Shown here piece after piece: positions 11,450 to 63,454 of a DNA stretch of 64,000 bases (position 1 is the stretch's first letter; each line of letters starts with the position of its first letter). Under the pieces are notes generated by a model. It searched no databases, was not told the origin of the DNA, and saw nothing but the letters and a program-made list of their open reading frames with translations. Position numbers and translations under genes: made by a program. The stretch lies in NCBI GenBank assembly GCA_000165345.1, contig CM000431.1:128001-192000 (forward strand), read 5' to 3'.

Positions 11450-12827
11450 ATGAGAAACAAAGAGATGGGGAAAACTAATCTTGACGAGTACGAGTTAATT
11501 GTAAGTTTTCTTATACAATTTTTTGCTTCAATAGTTAATTAACTTCTAATATTACTAATAGGATGGCTCATTTTCAACGGGATGTAGTCAGGAAATTGAG
11601 TTCATTGCACAGTCTTTGGTTGATCTAGTCGAGGCTTCCCCTGAGCTTTTAAATATGGATGGGAAAGTTGATTTGGAGGTAAGTTCCTTTATTAGTTTGT
11701 TTCTTGGAGCTTCTCAATAACTTCCTTTTATTTAATCACCGTAAATCTGCTTTGATCACTAGGTTGAAGGACGTATTGGGACTTTAATTAATGAAAATAC
11801 AAAGGAGAAGGTTTTACTCCCTGTGGAGGGAATGTGTTTGCTACTTCCAAGTGAAAAAGAGTTCTCCTACCGTTTTTCTCCTGGTTTGGAAAAGTGGCAA
11901 ATGACAAGTGTTGTAGAAGAATTAAGAAAGGATTTTGACGAGTCAAAAATCCCTTATATTATCAAAAATAGGAATACAAATGACTACTATGTTCATAATC
12001 CGAATAAATCAGAAACAGAAGACAAATCACTAATTAGATTAAGTTATATTTCTCCAAAAAATCAAAAAGATAAACCAACTGAAGCGATATGGAAGGAAAA
12101 GATTGCAGTCTTTGATTTTTGCTCTCCAGGCCAGCCTGGAGACTTGGAGACCAAACACAATATTGAGAATGGTACATTGCTTAAGGATTTCAGAATTGCG
12201 ATCAACCTTGAACATAAGGAGAATCCTATCGAAGTTGCCAATACTGTTACTGGTCCAATTGAAAATTCATGTGTTTTGGAAAGAAGAAGAGAAAGAGAAA
12301 CCGTAGAAGTTTCAAATTTTGTTCTAGACTCTACTCATGTGGTACAGATTGAAAGTCGCAGGGGATTTAGGCAATGCGAAACTTATGAATTAGAACTAGA
12401 GCTTAAGCCTTCCCACTTTATTCCTCTATTAAAGTCTTATATAGAGGATACAAACAATGGGAAATTGAAAGTAATAGGAACTCATCCTTTCATTAAGCTA
12501 CTTACCAACTTTGTTAATTTGGTGTTTGGAATTACTCTATTTCTCAATAACAAAAAACCAAATGAACAAATCGAATCTTCTATTCAAAACTCATCTGGAA
12601 ACGAAAACCAAATTATGGATTTAACAAGTTGTACTCAATCCAATGAAATAGTCCAAGCCTTCAAAAAATACGTCTCACCCATTACTCCTATACTCGGAGA
12701 CTATTTATATAGAGCCGTAGCTAGTGAGAAGCAGAAACTTAACAGACCACAAGATATTATTTGCAAGGATGATATAGATATTTCACTCGGAATTAAGCCT
12801 TTACCTCCTGATACTAAAGAAATCTAA
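11450..12827 (+). CDS. mRNA-capping RNA triphosphatase (Cet1/triphosphate-tunnel metalloenzyme family). Three exons: 11450..11500, 11562..11678, 11763..12827.
   Basis: ATG at 11450. Both introns have GTAAGT donors (11501, 11679) and AG acceptors (TAATAG|, CACTAG|), and both are in phase 0. The spliced N-terminus reads MRNKEMGKTNLDEYELI|DGSFSTGCSQEIEFIAQSLVDLVEASPELLNMDGKVDLE|VEGRIGTLINEN.. and carries the TTM beta1 ExExR motif (LEVEGRIG). A C-terminal YELELELK resembles the second metal-binding ExE strand of Cet1. Track ORF 11823..12827 is only exon 3 (GTG shown as M). Confidence 0.55.
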
Positions 12828-49528: not shown

Positions 49529-52500
49529 TTGAGAAAAAGTGAAAAGTGCAGGAAAGAGATAATGAAAGCGTTATTCCTGGCATTTTTAATAATTTTTATA
49601 GGAGGATGGGGTGGGGGAAAGCTGGTTAGAGTGGAATCTTTAAAAACAAGTGCAAAAAGGTATCAAGAAAGAGAAAGGGTTCCATCTCGTTTGCCTCCAC
49701 CAAGAGAAGAACCTCCGGTATTTCAAAGATATTTATATTCCTATCCAAAAGATTATGGTTATTACTTTTTTAATAGAATTAGTGATTCCAATTACTGGGA
49801 TCGTATTAATGGAGAAAATAAGCAAATTCCAATTGAGGGTTGGCAATGGGACAACACATCTAATAATTGGTTATGGGGTCCCTTAAGAAACCAGGATGGT
49901 ACACCATTACTTCCTTTGAGTCCAGAATTAGAAGCTCCAAGAGCTTATGTGGGCCCTACTCGTATTTATGGTCCAATTCAAGTCGATGATTTACCAATTC
50001 CAAGAGTTTTAGATATAATTTGTAAACCTTATGAAAGTTTAATAGGTATTAGAGCATGGTTTCCCAATCCTGAAAGTAAAGGAAGGAAAGATCTACGTGG
50101 GATTCAGTTCTTATGTTCTTCTCCTTTAGATACAAGAGTAAAAGGAGGGTCTAAACATTCAACATGGAGTAGGATTATGGGAAATGTTGGCCCAAATTTG
50201 AAAAAGTACACTGTTTTGACGCGTCCAGAGGATCCTTTTGTCAAAATTAGGGTTTTTGTTGAAACTTTAAACCCAGTAAAGCATCAGTCCCAAAGAGAGT
50301 TAGTTATACCAACCTATCAAGGTCCAAGATTAGTGTATATAGATAATCAAGAAGAAGCATTGGAAAAAGGTCCAATATACCTTATTAGAAGAATAACTTT
50401 GAGAACCAAGAATAATCATCTGAGTTTCTTGGGTAAGGCAGGAGGTAATTTACCTTCAGTTGTAGAGTCTGCTCCAGAAGGATATGAGCTTTCAGGATTC
50501 AGAATCTTGATTTCAGGATATCCAAGAAGTAAATGGAGGGGAGCTGACTTTTCAACTTTGGCATACAGAAACTCCATATCTTTAGGATTTCTCTTCTCAA
50601 AGACTGAGGATATACTGTCTCGTCCTCAAGTTATTTATGGTAGAAGAGGATATGATTTCCAAGATATTAAATGCGATGGGAAGATCACAGGATTACAAGG
50701 ATTTTTTATGGGAAATAGAGGGTTGGTCGGTATTAAAGTTGAATGTGACAGAGTATGGCAGGAAGTTATTTTGGGAATTACAGAAGGAACTGATTATAAG
50801 GCCTTGGTTGGGAGTATGATCAGTGCTGTGACTTTGCATTTATCACCAGAAAAGTTTATCCAAAGTCTGGTGGTATTCTCTACAACAGGTAGACAACAGA
50901 AGTTGGGTGATGATTGGGTTACTCCTACAATAAGATCCTCTAAATCAGAGGGGGGAGGAAGAGGAAAGATTCTACAAGGAATCTTTGCCGAGTTGGACAA
51001 AACTGGAGCTATTTCAGGAATTGGTTTCCATTGGAAGAAGCCTCCAAAGCCGGGTCAGGCTGGGGATAGGGAGGATTATGGTAATTTGGAGGTTTCTGAA
51101 TCTCCCTTGGAAGGAGGAGACACTGGATCACTTGGAAATTCTTCAAAGAAGGAGATTGTTCCAAGAAGCTCCTTCTATGGTAGAGTTGCTAAGGATTGTC
51201 CAATCCTGGAAACCAAATGTCCCACGGGTGTTCCATTGACAGGTCTACGTTTAATTATGAGAAAGGGTGAGACCCAGCCAAAACCCTTTAAAATGTACTT
51301 AGTTTCTTTGTCAATCCAATGTGGAGACGAGTTCTTTAAGCCAGTTGGGAATCCAAATCTAATAGAAGCAGGTAAGAAGAGGACTTATGACATTCTGATT
51401 CATGAAGAGGATCCAGTTGTAGATTTCAGGGTTTATCTTGGTGATCTTGGTCTTCCTCATCTTTTTGATCTTCGTTTCAAACATGATGTATTAAGTAGTT
51501 ATGAATTATATGGATTCAGAGTTGCTATGATGATTAGAAGTGAGAGAATTGGTGCGATTGCTCCTCTTTATAGGGTTGCAACTCCTATTGATTTACCTCC
51601 AATCACTGCAAAAGACATTAGTATTCGTCTATTTGGAGCTGTTAGACCTGAATCTGATCCAGATGTGGTAGTACTTGAAACATCTTGTCCACCTGGAATC
51701 CCTATTACAGCTGTTAGGATGTGGTTTGTAAGGAAGATTGAGGGAAATAATGTTTTCTCTAGGTTAGTTGGTCTTAGAATTCGTTGTGGTTCTAAATGGA
51801 GGAAGACTAAACTTGGAAGTAGTATGGGAGATAGATTTGAAGCTGAAGTGGAATCTGGGGACTTCTTCTCAAGATCCTTTGTTGAGAACCAATCCGAGAA
51901 GCCTTTCTATGTGAGTGGGATAATGCTAGTTACTTTAGAGAATAGAAAGTCATCTTTTGGTGAGACAGGAACAGAAATTATGAAGAAATTGGCATCAGGT
52001 GATGTTGAATCTGAAATATATGGATTTATTGGACAGGAAACACCAGAAGGATTAGTTTCTATTGGGTTCCTTGAGAGAAAAGCAAATTACGATGATTATC
52101 CAACATTTAATGATATTGAAGTGGCTCCATATCAAGTTTCTGCTTCAGATATCCAAGGAGAATCAGAAGGTTCTTTGAATGAGGAAAAGTTAATAGAAAG
52201 CGGAATTGTGAACTTCAGGCCCGGAGAGGAGTGGTTTGGACGTAGAGGATTAGGGGGATCTCATGCAGAAGAGACTTTCTGTGCTCCTGGAAGCAGGTTA
52301 ACTGGTCTTTTGGTACATACTTCAACAAAGATTCCTCATTCGATTATTGGTTTGACTTTAATATGCGATGGCAAGCCATTAAATCCAGTTGGAAGTACTT
52401 TGGGAGATATTGCCAGGTATGAGATTCCAATGAATGAGCCAATAGAAAAGGTTGAAGTTGTATTGAATAAAGAAGATAGATCACTAAGTAGATTAAAACT

Positions 52501-53851
52501 TTTCAATAGAAACCATATGAAAAAGAAGATGGGAAAATTACATGATAGATTCTTGAGTGGATTTGATGTAGAGATTAGAAAAGGAATGATAACAGCTTTA
52601 TCAGCAATATATACTAACTTTGGGGATTCTGGTCCTCCTCCAAAGGTAAGAACAGTACTTGGATCAAATCAAGTAGGGTCAGGTTCAGCCCCAATAACTG
52701 ATAGAAACACTCCATGGGGTCATGCAAATGCAAATGGAGATGTAAGTACTGGAGATGAGTATTCGTGCGAGGAAGGAACAAAACTTACTCAAATAACTAT
52801 GGCTTATAAGAGGAACTCTATAGAACAGAAACAAGAATTAATAGGTTTGAGGATTACTTGTAATGATGAAGATTATGAGCAAGTTGGAATGTGGGATGTT
52901 TCAGATAATAATTATATTCTTGTAGAGGAAACCTTTGGACTGAGGGAAAAAGAGTTTATAATAGCGATAGGAGGAACCAGGATTGATAAGACTCATAGTA
53001 TAGGAAAACTCTATTTTGAGACAAATCTTCTAAGACAGTTTGGGGAATGGCAGCATTATTATGTGGAGGCAAAAACAAGAGGAGATGGGTTGTATGGATT
53101 TGAATTGTTATTTGAGAAGACAGGAGATTATACAACTCCAATAGCAATGCTATTACCATTGTTCAGACCAACTTCAATGGATACAAGGAGTGAAGATTTG
53201 GAAGAGAAGAAATATAAATCTCCATTTGAATTACCAAAAGCAGTAGCAGAGTCATCAGAGGAAGCAAATGAGCAAGAAATGAGAGGAATGTTAAGTTCTC
53301 CAACAATTGTTACAGATTGGATTGGATTGGACATTGGAAGCTTAGAGATGGATGGAATTTGGTGTAAGACTTCAAGGCTAAAGTTGGATGGAAGAATGAC
53401 TTGGGAAGATTGGAGGAACTCAAGAATGACAGGATTGAGAGTATATAATGATGGAGACCACATTAAAGGAATAGCTCTTCAATGTGGGAATTCTTGGTTA
53501 GAGGAGGCAAATCTTGGTCTAGTTGGCCCGAAGTTCCATTTTGATGAAATTAGTGATTGTTTGGAGAGTGATGCTGATTATATAGAGAATATTGAAGTTG
53601 CTATTGATTCTAGAGGTATTCCGGCAGGGTTTAAAGTATTTAGCCACGTTAAGAGGCAGAAGAAAGTTTTAATTAATAATAATTCTATGGTGACTTGGCA
53701 ATCAAATGTTCCAGATTCAGGAAATCACTATGCTTCAGGCATTCATGTTGAATACGACCCTGATACTAATATTATATTCAGAGTTAGAATAGTCTATCGT
53801 CCAATTTCAATTGCAGAAGACCCTGAGGAAAATGTCGGGTTTATATTTTAA
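49529..53851 (+). CDS. Large (1440 aa) secreted protein made of about 8 copies of an unrecognised ~150-aa module marked by a Cys-bracketed hairpin C-x2-G-x2-[IL]-T-G-[LI]-R ... [IL]-x-G-[LI]-x-[IL]-x-C.
   Basis: A signal-peptide-like ALFLAFLIIFIGG follows the internal Met. Repeated segments: CKPYESLIGIRAWF..LRGIQFLC; CDGKITGLQGFF..LVGIKVEC; CPTGVPLTGLRLIM..YLVSLSIQC; CPPGIPITAVRMWF..LVGLRIRC; CAPGSRLTGLLVHT..IIGLTLIC; CEEGTKLTQITMAY..LIGLRITC; CKTSRLKLDGRMTW..IKGIALQC. Cys spacing is 23-36 aa. Confidence 0.6.
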   Translation: MRKSEKCRKEIMKALFLAFLIIFIGGWGGGKLVRVESLKTSAKRYQERERVPSRLPPPREEPPVFQRYLYSYPKDYGYYFFNRISDSNYWDRINGENKQIPIEGWQWDNTSNNWLWGPLRNQDGTPLLPLSPELEAPRAYVGPTRIYGPIQVDDLPIPRVLDIICKPYESLIGIRAWFPNPESKGRKDLRGIQFLCSSPLDTRVKGGSKHSTWSRIMGNVGPNLKKYTVLTRPEDPFVKIRVFVETLNPVKHQSQRELVIPTYQGPRLVYIDNQEEALEKGPIYLIRRITLRTKNNHLSFLGKAGGNLPSVVESAPEGYELSGFRILISGYPRSKWRGADFSTLAYRNSISLGFLFSKTEDILSRPQVIYGRRGYDFQDIKCDGKITGLQGFFMGNRGLVGIKVECDRVWQEVILGITEGTDYKALVGSMISAVTLHLSPEKFIQSLVVFSTTGRQQKLGDDWVTPTIRSSKSEGGGRGKILQGIFAELDKTGAISGIGFHWKKPPKPGQAGDREDYGNLEVSESPLEGGDTGSLGNSSKKEIVPRSSFYGRVAKDCPILETKCPTGVPLTGLRLIMRKGETQPKPFKMYLVSLSIQCGDEFFKPVGNPNLIEAGKKRTYDILIHEEDPVVDFRVYLGDLGLPHLFDLRFKHDVLSSYELYGFRVAMMIRSERIGAIAPLYRVATPIDLPPITAKDISIRLFGAVRPESDPDVVVLETSCPPGIPITAVRMWFVRKIEGNNVFSRLVGLRIRCGSKWRKTKLGSSMGDRFEAEVESGDFFSRSFVENQSEKPFYVSGIMLVTLENRKSSFGETGTEIMKKLASGDVESEIYGFIGQETPEGLVSIGFLERKANYDDYPTFNDIEVAPYQVSASDIQGESEGSLNEEKLIESGIVNFRPGEEWFGRRGLGGSHAEETFCAPGSRLTGLLVHTSTKIPHSIIGLTLICDGKPLNPVGSTLGDIARYEIPMNEPIEKVEVVLNKEDRSLSRLKLFNRNHMKKKMGKLHDRFLSGFDVEIRKGMITALSAIYTNFGDSGPPPKVRTVLGSNQVGSGSAPITDRNTPWGHANANGDVSTGDEYSCEEGTKLTQITMAYKRNSIEQKQELIGLRITCNDEDYEQVGMWDVSDNNYILVEETFGLREKEFIIAIGGTRIDKTHSIGKLYFETNLLRQFGEWQHYYVEAKTRGDGLYGFELLFEKTGDYTTPIAMLLPLFRPTSMDTRSEDLEEKKYKSPFELPKAVAESSEEANEQEMRGMLSSPTIVTDWIGLDIGSLEMDGIWCKTSRLKLDGRMTWEDWRNSRMTGLRVYNDGDHIKGIALQCGNSWLEEANLGLVGPKFHFDEISDCLESDADYIENIEVAIDSRGIPAGFKVFSHVKRQKKVLINNNSMVTWQSNVPDSGNHYASGIHVEYDPDTNIIFRVRIVYRPISIAEDPEENVGFIF

Positions 53852-55184: not shown

Positions 55185-56276
55185 ATGGAGCAAAATTCAA
55201 TTGTTCCATACCACAATGGAAGGAACTATCCTGAATATGGCCAGTTAACAAATTATTATCCTAATAATACAAATAATAATGGGAATGATTCAAAGTCTGC
55301 TCCATATGAGATTCCGGGATGTCCAGTTTTCAGTGTTTTCATAGCGACAGTTGTTGGTATTTTATGGCTCTTCTTTGCATTAACATTACCAGCATACCAT
55401 TATGCAAGAGTAGTTTTTCCAATAGATAATTATATTGACTTAAATTTCGGATTATGGACAGTACATGTTTCTTCAAACTGCGATTCATTCGTTAGTTTTG
55501 ACGCAAATAAGAAGATGTGTAGATTTATAGTTTCAAGAATGGATAATTTAAGTATTTCAGATGCTACAAACTTTATTTGTAGTCTTGAAGCTGGTACATT
55601 ACAACTTTTAAATCTTGGTTGTAATAAATTCCACTTGTTAAGAATTGGTTCATCAGTTATCATGACAATGTTTATTTTATCAATCATATTACTATTCTTT
55701 GCAGCAATCTTTTTATTAACATTTTGGTTCTGTTATCGTACAAGACGTGTGAGACAAAGTATATTTATGCTTCATTTCATTTCAGCATTAACATGCGTTC
55801 TTGGTATTGTTGGATATCTTCTTGTTGGTGGTCTTACTATACAGCCATTTAGAGATTCTTCAATGTTTGGAATAGGTAGTAGTATGTTTGCAAGACTATT
55901 CTTTGTTGATATTTCAAGAACATTTGATTTGTCAACAGGTTTTGCTTTTGCTGCTTTTGGAATGATTTGGATTGTTTTATTACCTTTATGGTCAGTTTGT
56001 GCATTACCATCAGATATTTGTGTGGATGCTATTGAAGTTATTGAGGATACAACATACGAGGAGGAAGAGTTAAAGAAGCTTTTGGGTTATTCAGGACTTT
56101 TTGGACAAAACTATGGTAATGAACAGTCTGCTGCTAATAACTCTTATTATTATCAGAATAATCAAAACCAGAATTATTATAATCATCAATATCCTCAATA
56201 TTATCAGGGCCAACAGAATCATAATCCATATGGGCAACAATATCCTTATTACAATCAACAATATAGAGGTTATTAG
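55185..56276 (+). CDS. Tetraspan (4-TM) membrane protein with a Cys-containing extracellular loop and a Q/N/Y-rich prion-like C-terminal tail.
   Basis: 363 aa. Helices: VFSVFIATVVGILWLFFAL, VIMTMFILSIILLFFAAIFLLTFWF, FISALTCVLGIVGYLLVGGL, AFAAFGMIWIVLLPLWSV. A loop carries 4 Cys. The tail reads NNSYYYQNNQNQNYYNHQYPQYYQGQQNHNPYGQQYPYYNQQYRGY. Confidence 0.5.
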   Translation: MEQNSIVPYHNGRNYPEYGQLTNYYPNNTNNNGNDSKSAPYEIPGCPVFSVFIATVVGILWLFFALTLPAYHYARVVFPIDNYIDLNFGLWTVHVSSNCDSFVSFDANKKMCRFIVSRMDNLSISDATNFICSLEAGTLQLLNLGCNKFHLLRIGSSVIMTMFILSIILLFFAAIFLLTFWFCYRTRRVRQSIFMLHFISALTCVLGIVGYLLVGGLTIQPFRDSSMFGIGSSMFARLFFVDISRTFDLSTGFAFAAFGMIWIVLLPLWSVCALPSDICVDAIEVIEDTTYEEEELKKLLGYSGLFGQNYGNEQSAANNSYYYQNNQNQNYYNHQYPQYYQGQQNHNPYGQQYPYYNQQYRGY

Positions 56277-56389
56277 TTGCAATTTATTTTAACCAAGTAA
56301 TTTGGACATTAAGGTTTCTATTTTTTCAAGGCAAGGCAATTTCTTTCTTTAAAAAGAGAATGTTGCAGCAAAAATTCCGTCTTTACTAT

Positions 56390-57660
56390 GATTCCTACTA
56401 CTTTATTACCACTACTTTTACTACCACTAATATTACTGTTACTACTACTACTACTANTACTAATANTANTATTATTATTATTATTGGTAATACTANTTTC
56501 AANACTATTACCAATGATAATTCAACAAATAGCNTCAGCTGTTTATAGTATTAATATTANTTCAAANCTTTTAATTCCATTNNCANCCATTTTNATCCAT
56601 TNCATTCTCTCTATTCCCCTCTCAANAAGTGGATTTATGTAATAACTTTAATAAGTTCGTTATATATCGAAANATAAATGTGTATAATCNTTGTACTATT
56701 GTTCGAGCATATTAGCAAGAATTATATTAAACTGGAAGAGAAATAGTAGAAGAAGAAAGTANGNATAGAGAATGAGTTAGAATTTGATAGTATGTCCAAG
56801 ATTTAGTTTATATTTCTATATTATACAANTAAAATCTATGAATTTTACTAGTTATTTTTTCTANGNTTATAGTTATTTTAAAGTTAAAATAAAATCTTTT
56901 ACTTGAAAATTTTAACATATCTCATATATTCTATTTGTTTTATNCACNAGATTTACTTTCTNATGTTATATTACTANTCAATTTTTGAAAATGCGAATAT
57001 TNTATTNGATACATGCGATTTGCATGCATCCACATAAATTCNCGNNATACCGTTTAAAGAAATATGGTAATTACGTGTCAATTTTTCTNTTTGAATAATN
57101 TTAATGGTATTTTTAATAGTATTANTATAANTAGTAGAAATTGTATTAAAAATTAGAAATGTTAGTGTGAATAAAGATATTAATANATTATTATTAGTAG
57201 AAATAAGTGGAAAACAAATAGTACTAAAATTGTAATTATTCNGATTAAAATAGTTTTTTTTTTTANTTTTTTAAATAAATAAAAAAACTTAAGTTAAATA
57301 TTAGATTTAATAATTAAATAAATGGGGTGGATACATATAATTTTANTNTTTCTAATCAATAATTTAATGATTAAGNACATGNAAATAAGTGTAGGTTATT
57401 TATTGATTANATTAAATTNTTTNGATAGTTNTTATNTTCANTTCCTNNNNNNANGNNTCTTTAGTAATTGATTTCCAGAAGAGATTTCCTGAAGTTGGAG
57501 TGTTNCGAAAATCTTGATAATTATGGACTCATAGTNCTNTNNTNNNNANTANTATNATTANNATTATCGNCAATATNNTCANGATTNNCCNNCTGTTNNN
57601 GCTCGNATNACNGTNGGTANAACTATTGNCTTNANNTNCATNTNNNANNNGTATATTTAC
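56390..57660. repeat. Low-complexity TAC/ATT microsatellite region containing many N characters (unresolved or low-quality assembly stretch).
   Basis: (tac)n/(att)n runs such as ctactactactantactaatantantattattattatt. Scattered N positions run from about 56457 to 57660, and dense N runs at 57447-57460 and 57540-57650. Confidence 0.7.
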
Positions 57661-59701
57661 AGTATTAGCAGTATCCTCAACTCCAAGTGAACTAACAGCT
57701 AAAGTTGTGGAAAGTCTTAAAATTTCATTTGGATTATTAGAAGCAGTTTCCAATTTAATATATGCAAATAATGAGATATTACTTTGTACTAGATCAATAT
57801 CAATAATAATTTGATTTTTATTTAAAGGAAATAATTCAATTGGAATTTTAAATTTTGAAATAGTACCTACAAAATCATTACTTTTCTTTTTATTTACTAT
57901 TTTATTTTCTCCAATTAATCCTTCTTGATTATTGAAATATTTTTTTATGTTAGTTTGTATAGTTGTAGTTTTTTTATTATTTACATTAATAGCTTTATTA
58001 ATTCCATCTAAAGTAGCTTCCATAAATAATGGTAATTTATTTGTATTCGTATTATGACTAATATGTGGAGCTATATCATCTAATAATTTATTTACCAAAA
58101 TAATTTCGTCTTCATTTAATATTAGAATATATCTCTGTGTTCCATCTTCACTTGATGTTATATTATACATGATAAGATAATTATCTAAATCAAAAGAAAT
58201 TTGTTCTTGTTTTGTTGTGTTAATACTTTCAAGTTTTTGATTATTATAATGGTCATCAATTAAAATATGATGACGTTTTTTATGTGGATTTTTTGTATTG
58301 ATTCCAGTATTATTTACTGAATTTATTTTCATTTGATCTTGATTGGATTGTTCTTCTATTTCATTTTGATTATTTTTTATGATCGTAGAGTTGTTTGAAT
58401 CATTAGTAGTATTTGAAAGAATAGTATTATTAAAGTTATCAAATTGTGTAGAATTTTCTGTAATATTTGTTATAAAGTTTGATTCTTTGAAATATTCCTC
58501 AGTATTATTGTTTAAAGATAAGGCATCTTTTGTTTGATTGGTTACTTTTTCCTGTAAATCTTTGATTTGAAGAAATTCTGAATTTGTTTGAGTATTTTTG
58601 TCCAAGGGTATTCCTCCATTGATCAAATTTCCAATATTTGCAGGAATGGTCGTATTTGCGGTAAAGTTACCAGTTGAAGAGCTTGAATCTTTGATTTCAA
58701 TTTTTTCTTCTTGTTTGTCCTTATTTTCTTTTTTCTCACCCTCCTTTTCTTTCTCACCCTTTTCTTTTCTTTTCATCCTCTTTTTCGGTCTTCTTCTTTT
58801 CTTCTACCTTTTCGTCCATCTCTTTTTTATCCTTTTCTTCCTCCGTTTTCTTTTCGTACTTCTTTTCATTCTCTGCCATCTTTTTATCCTCCACCTTCTT
58901 TTCGTCCTTTTCATTCTCTGTCTTCTTTTCATCTTTCTTTTCATTCTCTGTCTTCTTTTCTTCATCCGTTTTCTTTTCTTCCTCCGTTTTCTTTTCGTCC
59001 TTTTCATTCTCTGCCATCTTTTCATCCTCCACCTTCTTTTCGTCCTTTTCATTATCTGTCTTCTTTTCTTCATCCGTTTTCTTTTCGTCCTTTTCATTCT
59101 CTGCCATCTTTTCATCCTCCACCTTCTTTTTGTACTTTTCATTCTCTGTCTTCTTTCCTTCCTCTACCTTCTTTTTTCTCTCCTTTTCTTCCTCCATTTT
59201 CTTTTCGTCCTTCTCCTTTTCGTCCTTCTTTTCATTCTCTGTCTTCTTTTCATCATCTGTCTTCTTTTCGCTCTTCTCTTTCTCCTTCCCTTGTATTGGG
59301 TTGTATATCTCACTATGTAAATCTATATTTGCAGAATTTTTGATTTCATTTCTCTGATTATTTCTCAGTGATAGTTTTGCCTTAGAAATTGAGGAAGACT
59401 CAGAAATTTGTGTAGAATTATCGTTACTAATCAATGAAAATTCTGTCTTAATATTTAAAACTACTCCCTGTTGTATATTGCTTTTCAACTTTAATATTCT
59501 TCCACTGCATGATTCTCCTATTGTATTAATTTCACAAACTTGATCATTATTTTGCTTTTGAGAATTTTCAATCTCAGCTATTTGATCTTCTGCTAAAATC
59601 TCATAATTCTCCAATCTAACGCTTTCTGATAACCAAACAAAGCTAAATATTACTAAAATAGGAAGAAATAATCTTCCAAACTTAATTATATGCATTTTCA
59701 T
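57529..59701 (-). CDS. Secreted protein with a signal peptide, KE-rich 15-aa tandem repeats and an N/T/S-rich C-terminal region. It is split by an apparent frameshift near 58754-58776, and its 3' end runs into the N-containing gap.
   Basis: Track ORFs 58754..59701(-) and 57529..58776(-) are adjacent, overlap by 23 nt in different frames and share composition (..KKTEKEDEKKRKG* / MKRKEKGEKEKEGEKKENKDK..). The N-terminal MKMHIIKFGRLFLPILVIFSFVWLSESV is a signal peptide. The shift lies in gaaaagaaaagaaaaggg. The downstream ORF ends inside the N-rich region, so the true 3' end is unknown. Confidence 0.5.
58740..59285. repeat. Coding tandem repeat with a 45-bp unit in two alternating variants (90-bp super-unit), encoding EKKVEDEKMAENEKD / EKKTDEEKKTDNEKD on the minus strand.
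   Basis: Repeated ...cgtccttttcattctctgccatcttttcatcctccaccttctttt / cgtccttttcattatctgtcttcttttcttcatccgttttctttt... The plus-strand ORFs 58598..59320, 58711..59343 and 59130..59357, and the minus ORF 58804..59142, are alternate-frame artefacts of this repeat. Confidence 0.75.
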
Positions 59702-61396
59702 CTTTTTTTTTTTTTTTATTTAAATTTGATAAAATATTATTATTGTTATTTTGGTTTTACTATTATTTGTATTCAAATTAAATATTAATAATAATTAATA
59801 AATAAAAGATACCTTTCCTTCACTTTATTCGACTTAATGTGAGAACTTATTATTGCTTTACTACTTACAATGATTTTATTTGGAATTACTTCATTACTAA
59901 AGAGTAAAAATTTGTATTCTTCTTTACCATTAATCTATTTATTTATAATTATTATTGAATATTTTCTCTATATACTCAATGAATTCCTTATTTCAAATTC
60001 TCGATATTTATTGCATTTATAGATCTATGGCAAAATTATACACATTAGAATTTATAGTAAATAATTAAAAAAAAAAAGAATAAAAAAAAAATATATTTAA
60101 ATGTTTAACATTAATTTTATTGAAAATAAAAAATTCTTTACTAATCCATCATTTGCTTTCTATGTAGAATTAAATATACATATTTTCTACAAAATAACTC
60201 AATCTTAGATTATTAGTTTTCTTTAGAATAATTTATTGATACAACAAAAAATTTATTAATACAATTTGACTTTTTTTAAAAGAAATATTAAATCCCTCTA
60301 TTAATTTATTTTTATAATAAAGAGAAAATTAAAAAAAAAAAAAACTTTTTTCCACTATTTCTAATTTTACATGCATTTTAAGAAAGAAACCCGCCAAATC
60401 ATTTATTTTGAATTTTTATTTCTTTTTTTCCAAATTAATAATAGTAATTGTTATATTAATTAAAACAACTTTAATTATATATTTTTTTAAAAATTTCTTC
60501 ATCTCTTTTTTTCTTAAAAAAAAAGTAAAAATCTCGCTACTTTAATACTCAATTCTTAAAAAAGTGTATTAAACAAAAAATATTTACATAAATATATATA
60601 CAAATATAATATAAATATTTTTATTGCATAAATTAATGTCATTATTAAATATTATTTAATAATTTATAATTTGTAGTGTAAATTCATATAATAATATATT
60701 AATAATATTAATAATAATATAAACAACTTTAGATATTAATTAATTTGCACATTTTTACCGCCAAAACTACTTTTAAAATAATCAATATTTGCATGAGTAA
60801 TGTTTGTAAGGATTATTTATTATTATAATTTTTTTTCCTCAGCGGCTATAATAAAATTAAAGGAGAGTTATAATCAATTATATATTAATTAATAATAAAT
60901 ATAAACAAGAAATACCGTATATTATAAGTTGATTTATTGATAAGACAAAAAAAGAAAATAATAAAAGTTGAAGGAAAAGAAATAATAATAATAACAAACC
61001 AAGTTGACATTTCAAGACTCTAAAATAGTCAATATATTGGATGATATAAAATATTAGCAAATATAGAGGGGAAACAGAGAAATATATATAACCAAATAAA
61101 TCGCAATTTTGACAAATAGAAGTATTAAGGACTTAAAAATATTGTCAATTAATAGTTTGTAAAAAAAAAAAAAAAAGAAAGGAATCGTATGGTATTTGAA
61201 TAGAGTTAAAAATTGAATAATATTTAATATAGTCAAAATAATAAGAAGAAAACTTGATAAGAATCTAATCACAAGTAAATTTTTTTCAAAAATTTATATT
61301 TATTTATATATATGTAATTATATTTTAACATATATTTATATATATATTTAAATATAAATATATATCCAAAAATAAGACTGAAAAAAAAGATAAAAA

Positions 61397-63454
61397 ATGG
61401 AAGAGAAAATCGACAGGAAAGATTTTTTCTCAGTAGAGCTTGAAAATGGACAAGTAGAACCTGAATCATCTCCAATATATAGAAATCCTAGTTATTCTAA
61501 AGGTGAATTATCAAATTTACAAGGTTTAAATGCAAACAATTTATGGGAACTATTTGTAAATTCTGTAAATAAATATAAGAATAAAAAATGTCTTGGAACA
61601 AGAAAACTAAATAGAGATGGAACTTATGGAGAATATGTATTTAAAAGCTATGAAGAATTGAAAGAAGAGGCTTTAAATATTGGTATTAATATTTTAAAGA
61701 TGGATTTATGCCCAATAAGAAAATATGAAGATAATGAATATCAAAAAGAAATTAGTATGATGGGTATATTGAGTAGAAATAGAGAAGAATGGTATTTAAC
61801 AGAACATGCATGTAATGCATTTGGAATTTGTTTAGCTCCTTTATATGATACTTTGGGAGAAGATAATTTAAAATTTATACTGGTGCAAACACAATTAAAA
61901 AGTCTATGTATTTCAAATGATAGTTTAGAAAAGATTATATCAATTATTGAAAGATCTATAATTGATTCAACCAGAGATTCAATATTAATAAAAAATTTGA
62001 TATGCTTTGATCATCCAACAACAGAAATTAATCAGAGAGCTAAGAATTTAGATATTAATTTGATTTTATTCAAGAATTTACAAGAAAAAGTCAGTAAGAA
62101 AGATAAAGAAATATACAAACCCAAAAAAATTAAACCAGATGATATGTGTTCAATACATTTTACATCGGGAACTACTGGATATCCAAAAGGAGCAATATTA
62201 ACACATCGTTGTTTTTTAGCATGCGTAAAAAGTTCATATGAACATTTATTTTCAGAGAAAGAAATACAATTAGATAATGAAGATGCACATTTATCTTATC
62301 TTCCAATGGCACATATATTTGAAAGATTAATTGTAATGAATGCTTATTATTTGGGAATACCAATTGGTATATTTAGTGGTAGTGTAACAAGATTAATGAG
62401 TGATTCACAAGAATTAAAACCAACAATATTAGTTTGTGTACCACAAGTCTTAACAAGAATTATTCAAACAGTTAATGATAAAATTAGTCAATCAAACTTT
62501 TTAGTAAGAACAGTATTTCATAAAGCATTGAAACAAAAAGAAAGTATTATTAAAACAAAAGGAGATCCAACACATTGGTTATGGGATAGAATTATTTTTA
62601 GTAATACAAGACAGATATTAGGTGGAAAATTGAAAGCTATAATAAGTGGAGCAGCACCATTAGGTTTAGAAGTAAATCATAAAATACAAGCAATTTTTTG
62701 TTGTAAATTAATTGAAGGATTTGGTATGTCAGAATGTATTGGTACTTTAGGTACAAGATATTCATATGCACATTTAGGTACTGTTGGTGGTCCATTTAGT
62801 GATGTAGAAGTCAAATTAACATCAGTATTAGAAATGGGGTATGATTCAACAAAAGAACCAAGAAGAGGATTATTAAAGATAAGAGGTAACAGTGTATGTA
62901 AAGGTTACTTTAGGGATATAATCAATAGTAAAGAATTGATTGATAGTAATGGTTGGTTAGATACTGGTGATATAGCAGAAAGACAACAAGATGGCTCATT
63001 TAAGATTATTGATAGAAAGAAATCATTATTTAAATTGTCTCAAGGTGAATATATTTCACCAGAAAGAATTGAGGGAATATATTTATCATCATCATCATTA
63101 ATTCAACATGTATATGTATATGGTCAATCAACTGATAGATTTTTAGTAGCTTTAATATTCCCAAATGAGCAAGCATTAAGAAAATGGTCGGAAGATAAAG
63201 GAATGAATACTTTATCATTATCTTTGGAAGAATTATGTGAATCTCATGAATTATTTGATGAATTGAATGATTCTTTTCATAAAGCTGAATTAAGTTCAAA
63301 TTTATTTGGTTTTGAGAGAATACATAAATTTAAAGTAATTCCTGAGGTTTTAAGTACTTCAAATGGATTATTAACACCAACTATGAAGATTGTGAGAAAT
63401 AAAGTCAATTCAAAGTATAAGGAAGTTTTGAATACTTTAAGATCACAAATTTGA
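61397..63454 (+). CDS. Long-chain fatty acyl-CoA synthetase (AMP-binding superfamily).
   Basis: AMP-binding motif I HFTSGTTGYPKGAILTHR, motif II EGFGMSECIG and motif III DTGDIAERQQDGSFKIIDRKK. The 685-aa length is typical of eukaryotic LACS. Confidence 0.9.
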   Translation: MEEKIDRKDFFSVELENGQVEPESSPIYRNPSYSKGELSNLQGLNANNLWELFVNSVNKYKNKKCLGTRKLNRDGTYGEYVFKSYEELKEEALNIGINILKMDLCPIRKYEDNEYQKEISMMGILSRNREEWYLTEHACNAFGICLAPLYDTLGEDNLKFILVQTQLKSLCISNDSLEKIISIIERSIIDSTRDSILIKNLICFDHPTTEINQRAKNLDINLILFKNLQEKVSKKDKEIYKPKKIKPDDMCSIHFTSGTTGYPKGAILTHRCFLACVKSSYEHLFSEKEIQLDNEDAHLSYLPMAHIFERLIVMNAYYLGIPIGIFSGSVTRLMSDSQELKPTILVCVPQVLTRIIQTVNDKISQSNFLVRTVFHKALKQKESIIKTKGDPTHWLWDRIIFSNTRQILGGKLKAIISGAAPLGLEVNHKIQAIFCCKLIEGFGMSECIGTLGTRYSYAHLGTVGGPFSDVEVKLTSVLEMGYDSTKEPRRGLLKIRGNSVCKGYFRDIINSKELIDSNGWLDTGDIAERQQDGSFKIIDRKKSLFKLSQGEYISPERIEGIYLSSSSLIQHVYVYGQSTDRFLVALIFPNEQALRKWSEDKGMNTLSLSLEELCESHELFDELNDSFHKAELSSNLFGFERIHKFKVIPEVLSTSNGLLTPTMKIVRNKVNSKYKEVLNTLRSQI

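Follow-up and report, generated by a model that had tools for sequence, protein, structure and literature searches.

Two open reading frames (ORFs) that overlap on one strand, in different frames and inside an A-rich repeat, raise the question of whether a frameshift has switched off half of a gene, whether two genes lie side by side, or whether the sequence is wrong. We addressed this for a 64,000-nucleotide (nt) stretch of contig CM000431.1 (positions 128,001 to 192,000; assembly GCA_000165345.1), referred to here as the window, whose positions are used throughout unless a contig is named. The window ORF list holds minus-strand ORF1 (58754..59701, 315 amino acids, aa) and ORF2 (57529..58776, 415 aa), whose 23-nt overlap falls within GAAAAGAAAAGAAAAGGG. 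An earlier reading of the letters alone (the original prediction) had reported this overlap, and the coordinates are correct; it had proposed a secreted, lysine/glutamate (K/E)-rich repeat protein in which the shift could be a sequencing error or genuine repeat-length or phase variation. We conclude that the two ORFs are very probably one Cryptosporidium parvum gene (cgd3_630, CPATCC_0031520 or cpbgf_300630), split by a spurious base in a part of an old Sanger-era consensus that was never finished.

The apparent frameshift in cgd3_630

Exact look-up of both flanking proteins found them in three finished, chromosome-scale C. parvum assemblies (GCA_015245375.1, CP044420.1; GCA_031892065.1, CP029782.1; GCA_048859185.1, CM109963.1) and in dozens of short-read assemblies. 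Between these identical neighbour proteins, each finished assembly has one minus-strand ORF: 745 aa in L003 (12262-14499) and L004 (12261-14498), and 717 aa in L002 (12261-14414). A lone ORF at the same place on chromosome 3, between cgd3_610 and cgd3_640 (CpACS1), is also present in L008 and L009. Under the names cpbgf_300630 and CPATCC_0031520, the source records call the product "uncharacterized" or a "putative signal peptide-containing protein", and the single-ORF form of the gene is already known from public assemblies. We assigned the legacy identifier cgd3_630 to ORF1 by mapping the quantitative PCR (qPCR) primers of Mauzy et al. 2012, which fall at 59501-59522 (-) and 59376-59399 (+). 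Exact look-up of the 315-aa ORF1 gave no match, as expected of an artefact.

DNA alignment showed that, across the gene, the window is base-for-base the same as L003 and L004 save for one inserted base, one substitution and an N-rich 3' part. The insertion lies in a run of T on the plus strand (A on the gene strand) that is four bases long in the window and three in every other sequence checked; the gene strand of the window reads GAAAAG[A]AAAGAAAAGGG, the bracketed A being the extra base. This base yields a perfect (GAAAA)3, detected by Tandem Repeats Finder (TRF) at 58759-58774 with period 5, 3.2 copies and 100% match. The reading frame is intact at this site in L002, L003 and L004, in the short-read contig L010, in DNA of the C. 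hominis TU502 contig (L001, which reads GATGAAAAGAAAGAAAAGG here) and in other C. hominis proteins. Twenty nt upstream of the frameshift, at 58788, the gene strand of the window has ACC where the finished assemblies have AAC (Asn to Thr). From 57650 downward, Ns and small insertions wreck the final ~60 codons. In the alignment, the true stop falls at 57450-57452, within a run of six Ns, and the ORF2 stop at 57529 is an indel artefact. The 1.7 kb upstream of the gene differ from L003 and L004 by a single 1-nt indel, and hence the window represents the same IOWA lineage with sporadic single-base errors. Outside the error sites the window copy is nucleotide-identical to finished cgd3_630, and the insertion, the substitution and the garbled 3' end are errors rather than biology. 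The frameshift, the two-ORF split and the premature stop are artefacts of unfinished sequence that public assemblies already correct; three finished assemblies with one unbroken ORF bear out the earlier suspicion of a sequencing error at a locus that is not finished sequence.

We considered whether the extra A could be a genuine frameshift allele that makes the gene a phase-variable contingency locus, or truncates its product in the sequenced C. parvum stock, and so switches off the C-terminal half of a surface antigen. Slippage is conceivable within the short A-rich pentamer repeat, and cgd3_630 does vary in repeat length. However, we found no long homopolymer or non-multiple-of-three repeat at the site: the tract is A3 or A4 in about three imperfect GAAAA units, far shorter than known slippage-prone tracts. 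Nor did tract length vary among L002, L003, L004, L010, C. hominis L001 and two other C. hominis proteins, all of which have A3 in frame; six independent sequences from two species agree. The repeats that are polymorphic at the gene have units of 45 nt and 3 nt, unlike contingency-locus tracts, and every length variant observed comprises whole codons. A second window-only base change lies only 20 nt away, and a visibly poor-quality stretch about 1.1 kb away. Moreover, the ratio of nonsynonymous to synonymous substitution (dN/dS) in the part after the repeats is 0.38 between C. parvum and C. hominis; the conserved C-terminal domain is therefore constrained. We regard a genuine frameshift allele as highly improbable. 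Of the variation foreseen in the original prediction, in-frame copy-number change between isolates is real, whereas frameshifting phase variation is not supported, the extra A being found only in the window. Programmed ribosomal frameshifting was also rejected, since the extra base is missing from the DNA of all other assemblies.

The notion that two adjacent genes are independent of each other, one for an N-terminal secreted repeat protein and one for a downstream protein of its own from the ATG at 58776, is an outcome that the original prediction had itself named. It could appeal to the ATG starts of both ORFs in the window and to the annotation of more than one legacy model here (cgd3_620 and cgd3_630), but we give it practically no credence: the finished assemblies, with no stop between the halves, already refute it, both conserved modules sit on one polypeptide in the orthologues of C. 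hominis, C. canis, C. felis, C. bovis and C. xiaoi, and legacy cgd3_620 maps to the antisense strand of the repeat, not to the downstream half.

Ambiguous bases in the 3' patch

All 98 Ns of the window fall within 56457-57650, in runs of at most six, and the other 62.8 kb are N-free. The original prediction had taken these Ns for an assembly gap. We found no contiguous N run standing for lost sequence, and the distance from the neighbour's stop to the ATG of the gene is 3425 nt in the window versus 3407 nt in finished sequence, i.e. about 18 nt longer. Hence, the assembly gap was rejected; the Ns are scattered ambiguity calls and no sequence is missing. The trinucleotide microsatellite described as accompanying scattered Ns from about 56457 is indeed there, as (TAC)n/(TAT)n at 56384-56485.

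We aligned the intergenic part of the patch with the finished C. parvum sequences and C. hominis TU502. The 964 aligned positions of 56457-57431 include 45 differences between C. parvum and C. hominis and 44 Ns, and 39 of the 44 Ns coincide with differences (hypergeometric P = 1.6e-57). At four further differences (56987, 57011, 57017 and 57020) the window is C. hominis-like, and at all nine differences just to the left (56291-56425) it is C. parvum-like. Thus, the consensus of this ~1-kb stretch was built from two conflicting sequence types, one of C. parvum type and one of C. hominis type. Between 57436 and 57650, Ns are dense where both species agree and are accompanied by several small insertions, and we therefore ascribe this part to plain poor read quality. 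The N pattern is the one unexpected result of the analysis, and is a point on the old assembly, not on biology. In the portions of PMC8744675 and PMC12179316 available to us, there is no statement that Ns coincide with differences between C. parvum and C. hominis.

We infer that patching with sequence of the other species, or contaminating reads, brought in the second sequence type. A real C. hominis-like haplotype in the sequenced stock, mixed or introgressed, would also place Ns on species differences far above chance and would account for the four sites that are outright C. hominis-like. However, a mixed population would conflict everywhere, whereas the remaining 62.8 kb of the window lack any N; immediately left of the stretch, all nine differences follow C. 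parvum; and three later IOWA-lineage or C. parvum assemblies have only the C. parvum type at this stretch. A real haplotype is therefore very unlikely.

In the finished assemblies L003 and L002, cgd3_610 and cgd3_630 converge, and between their 3' ends lies a palindrome with 24-nt arms (11807-11830 and 11836-11859) that are 100% complementary around a 5-nt loop, with a DNA fold of -29.7 kcal/mol (z = -11.8). We looked for the inverted repeat in the window copy of the palindrome (56991-57048) and found none; the copy is garbled and C. hominis-like. The coding (AAT)n tract has nine Asn codons in C. parvum and six to eight in C. hominis, and draws the heaviest N calls in the window. Short-read assemblies of many samples break reproducibly at (AAT)n, at (TAC)n or at the K/E array: L005 and L006 end (12367) and L010 starts inside the (AAT)n tract, the short-read contig L007 ends (11285) in the (TAC)n microsatellite, and L011 likewise starts at one of these three repeats. 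The C. hominis TU502 gene lies at the first bases of its contig, and therefore that assembly broke in the K/E repeat as well. We propose that 56457-57650 is a low-coverage join, bounded by two trinucleotide microsatellites and containing a strong 53-nt palindrome, all of them sequences that break assemblies, and that the join was bridged or contaminated by C. hominis-type sequence, which would leave Ns at species differences. An Rfam search of 56200-61400 gave no match. The palindrome loop is inverted between isolates, reading TATCT in L003 and L004 and AGATA in L002.

As documented in PMC8744675 and PMC12179316, the C. parvum IOWA II reference of 2004 holds 10 gaps and 18,558 ambiguous bases, along with artefactual frameshifts and gene splits, none of which persist in later assemblies. 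The defects of that reference (Baptista et al. 2022, PMC8744675; PMC12179316) resemble those of the present locus, with its scattered Ns, split gene and extra, probably spurious model at a repeat, and long-read assemblies resolve them all. One difference is that cgd3_630 is not among the frameshift variants listed there, a list that derives from short-read variant calling. Two points weigh against our account of the locus. From the lineage match and the Ns we infer that the window is the 2004 IOWA II assembly, and strictly, the extra base could be a real minority or private allele of the stock sequenced in 2004. For users of the older sequence, the consequences are practical. Analyses built on it inherit the split gene, the garbled C-terminus and the probably spurious antisense model cgd3_620, which has even been assayed by qPCR; the finished assemblies have all three put right. 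Because the Ns of this patch mark species differences, certain "ambiguous bases" in the older reference may encode cross-species conflicts and not low quality, which matters for comparisons of C. parvum with C. hominis.

Architecture, relatives and expression of cgd3_630

Translation bore out the signal-peptide-like start, Cys-containing region, K/E repeats and N/T/S-rich stretch of the original prediction. The N-terminus of ORF1 is hydrophobic and, judged by eye, a putative signal peptide; orthologues are annotated as "signal peptide-containing protein". There are only two Cys residues, at positions 56 and 65, and family alignment shows that the C-x8-C module they form is kept from C. parvum to C. 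bovis and C. xiaoi. The K/E motif goes on in ORF2 and gives way to an Asn/Thr/Ser-rich stretch, after which comes a C-terminal part of greater complexity. Over its full length the protein carries 18 N-x-S/T sequons, 13 of them at residues 345-500, in the linker (N 21%, T 12%, S 6%), which is poorly conserved across species. Beyond it lies a conserved C-terminal domain of about 230 aa followed by a conserved, basic tail, MSPNYEISKHPIQKSFWKSI, which is readable only in the finished copies, the window being unreadable at or below 57660.

The finished cgd3_630 and the C. hominis proteins CUV04894.1 and KAL3128875.1 share chromosomal place and domain order with the window gene. In all orthologues, a signal peptide, the C-x8-C module and a C-terminal domain with the KHPIQKSFWKSI tail occur on one polypeptide; together with the architecture, this upholds the description as a secreted repeat protein. 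When 1.84 billion representative proteins were searched exhaustively with HMMER, only five relatives emerged, every one of them from Cryptosporidium (C. hominis, C. canis, a Logan assembly, C. felis, and C. bovis/C. xiaoi); the family is restricted to this genus. A word-indexed protein search gave only C. hominis TU502 and C. bovis, missing known orthologues that include a 99%-identical C. parvum protein. The part of ORF2 after the repeats is 95% identical to a C. hominis TU502 hypothetical protein.

One general class of secreted apicomplexan antigens has a signal peptide and, between conserved flanks, charged, low-complexity tandem repeats that differ between close species and vary in copy number between isolates. 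The architecture of cgd3_630 is like that of this class, although its own family is restricted to Cryptosporidium. Cryptosporidium mucin-like glycoproteins (gp40/15 and the Muc family) are, like cgd3_630, secreted, polymorphic, low in complexity and prone to glycosylation. Unlike them, cgd3_630 has K/E repeats and an Asn-rich linker in place of Ser/Thr-rich mucin tracts, and we found no sequence similarity between the two. A mucin-like protein was rejected on composition, given the linker figures above and a repeat that is 35% K and 31% E.

Published expression data place the transcript in intracellular stages. In the supplementary qPCR data of Mauzy 2012, cgd3_630 stays at ~0 over 2-6 h and begins to rise at 12 h; the peak comes at 36-48 h, with 1.3e-3 at 36 h versus 1e-7 to 1e-6 for its neighbours. 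The supplement of Matos 2019 gives a log2 fold change of -5.0 for oocyst versus intracellular stages, i.e. about 30-fold higher expression in the latter. RNA-seq (PMC11078545) gives 25-640 reads for cgd3_630 and ~0 for cgd3_620. The gene is not listed in the supplements of Tandel 2019, and the paper texts searched do not mention cgd3_630, cgd3_620 or the new identifiers.

These data suggest that cgd3_630 encodes a glycoprotein secreted by intracellular stages. The protein would be made by those stages, the transcript being absent in oocysts and at 2-6 h, and would then enter the secretory pathway; the conserved terminal modules would carry its function, and the charged repeat would be a disordered, fast-evolving spacer. 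This functional assignment is tentative and draws on sequence architecture and transcript timing. Pfam gave no match for either half, for the whole protein or for three orthologues, and a sequence-profile search of the PDB gave none either. Two AlphaFold2 (AF2) runs modelled the C-terminal domain as beta-rich at low confidence (predicted local distance difference test, pLDDT, 53.5 and 44.8), so that the domain may be beta-rich; no confident structural match emerged, and a galectin-like or other lectin-type beta-sandwich, as in T. gondii MIC1-GLD, is a tentative lead. We see only a slender chance for a more far-reaching combination, in which the N pattern records a real C. hominis-like haplotype and, separately, the cgd3_630 family is an unrecognised secreted glycoprotein of intracellular stages at the host-parasite interface whose repeat could serve as a typing marker.

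Repeat-length variation and features of the locus

The K/E-rich stretch is 208 aa in full. TRF reports 9.9 copies of a 45-nt period (score 408) and 4.9 copies of a higher-order 93-nt period (score 430) at 58832-59284, and amino-acid autocorrelation of the array peaks at lags of 15 and 30. The earlier estimate of about 12 copies is thus fair for the whole stretch. Comparison of copy number between isolates, which the original prediction had suggested, revealed differences within both species. The 717-aa allele of L002 lacks 90 nt of the array (two 15-aa units) and has several substitutions as well, and what separates the 694-aa from the 718-aa protein of C. hominis is a 22-aa block of the array plus two Asn of the poly-Asn tract (six versus eight). 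The array of L010 is shorter still, and some short alleles may be short-read collapses; K/E and poly-Asn copy numbers from short-read assemblies are unreliable. In L002, L010 and L011, a 6-nt TATTTT indel at ~59650-59660 makes the hydrophobic core of the signal peptide two residues longer. This in-frame length polymorphism is genuine and always involves whole codons. The spacer may grow and shrink by whole 15-aa units, in frame, through slippage or unequal recombination. C. hominis has two extra residues in the signal-peptide core, at the position of the C. parvum indel.

In the family alignment, the K/E array is a gap in four to five of the five distant orthologues. In C. canis the slot for a charged repeat is conserved and its content replaced, the orthologue filling it with a long D/R-rich repeat (DRDDRNDRDDRDG...).

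The features of the locus, a region that is AT-rich (GC 19-28%), are collected in Table 1.

Table 1. Coordinates of cgd3_630 and associated features in the window.
Feature	Position	Strand	Basis
Whole gene cgd3_630	57450..59701	-	Single ORF in finished IOWA-lineage assemblies; in the window split, with garbled 3' end
Signal-peptide-like N-terminus (MKMHIIKFGRLFLPILVIFSFVWLSES)	59621..59701	-	Translation judged by eye
Conserved N-terminal module, C56-x8-C65 (VRLENYEIL...CEINTIGESCSG...LNIKTEF)	59291..59620	-	Family alignment
K/E-rich tandem-repeat array	58700..59290	-	Tandem Repeats Finder, composition, autocorrelation
Frameshift site	58765..58768	-	DNA alignment with finished assemblies
Window-only substitution	58788..58788	-	DNA alignment with finished assemblies
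N/T/S-rich low-complexity linker	58273..58699	-	Sequon count; poor cross-species conservation
Conserved C-terminal domain (HHILIDD...NITS...APHISHN...KLPLFMEA...FKIP...IDIDLVQ...NPNEILRLSTTLAVSSLG) and tail motif MSPNYQISKHPIQKSFWKSILKTH	57450..58272	-	Orthologue alignments, family search
Coding (AAT)n microsatellite, poly-Asn	57536..57565	-	DNA alignments
N-on-difference 3' intergenic stretch between convergent genes	56457..57431	.	Alignment with C. parvum and C. hominis
Poor-quality stretch	57436..57650	.	DNA alignments
(TAC)n/(TAT)n microsatellite, left edge of N-bearing stretch	56384..56485	.	Tandem Repeats Finder
Garbled palindrome copy	56991..57048	.	Comparison with L003 and L002
Antisense F/L/S-rich ORFs (240 and 210 aa), legacy cgd3_620 model	58598..59343	+	ORF list, primer mapping

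The qPCR primers for legacy cgd3_620 map to the repeat, with the forward primer at 59142 on the plus strand and the end of the reverse primer at 59288-59312 on the minus strand. The plus-strand ORFs of 240 and 210 aa exist because they are the reverse complement of the K/E repeats, and cgd3_620 is probably a spurious gene model. The gene calls for L002, L004, L008 and L009 also hold plus-strand ORFs of 206 or 236 aa at this place.

Primer mapping also placed two neighbours on the convergent side, cgd3_610 at 55185-56276 and cgd3_600 at 49529-53851. The latter has been cited as the dense-granule protein DG1 (PMC12407990); on the plus strand it is 1440 aa from a TTG start in the ORF list, versus 1429 aa as called in assemblies. 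In the intergenic region upstream of cgd3_630, the window has one extra T at 59917 compared with all three finished assemblies. The next gene on that side, listed as the downstream neighbour, is CpACS1 (cgd3_640; PMC8717973), which encodes 683 aa in the IOWA-ATCC assembly (L003, 16194-18242) versus 685 aa in the window (61397-63454) and in the two other finished assemblies.

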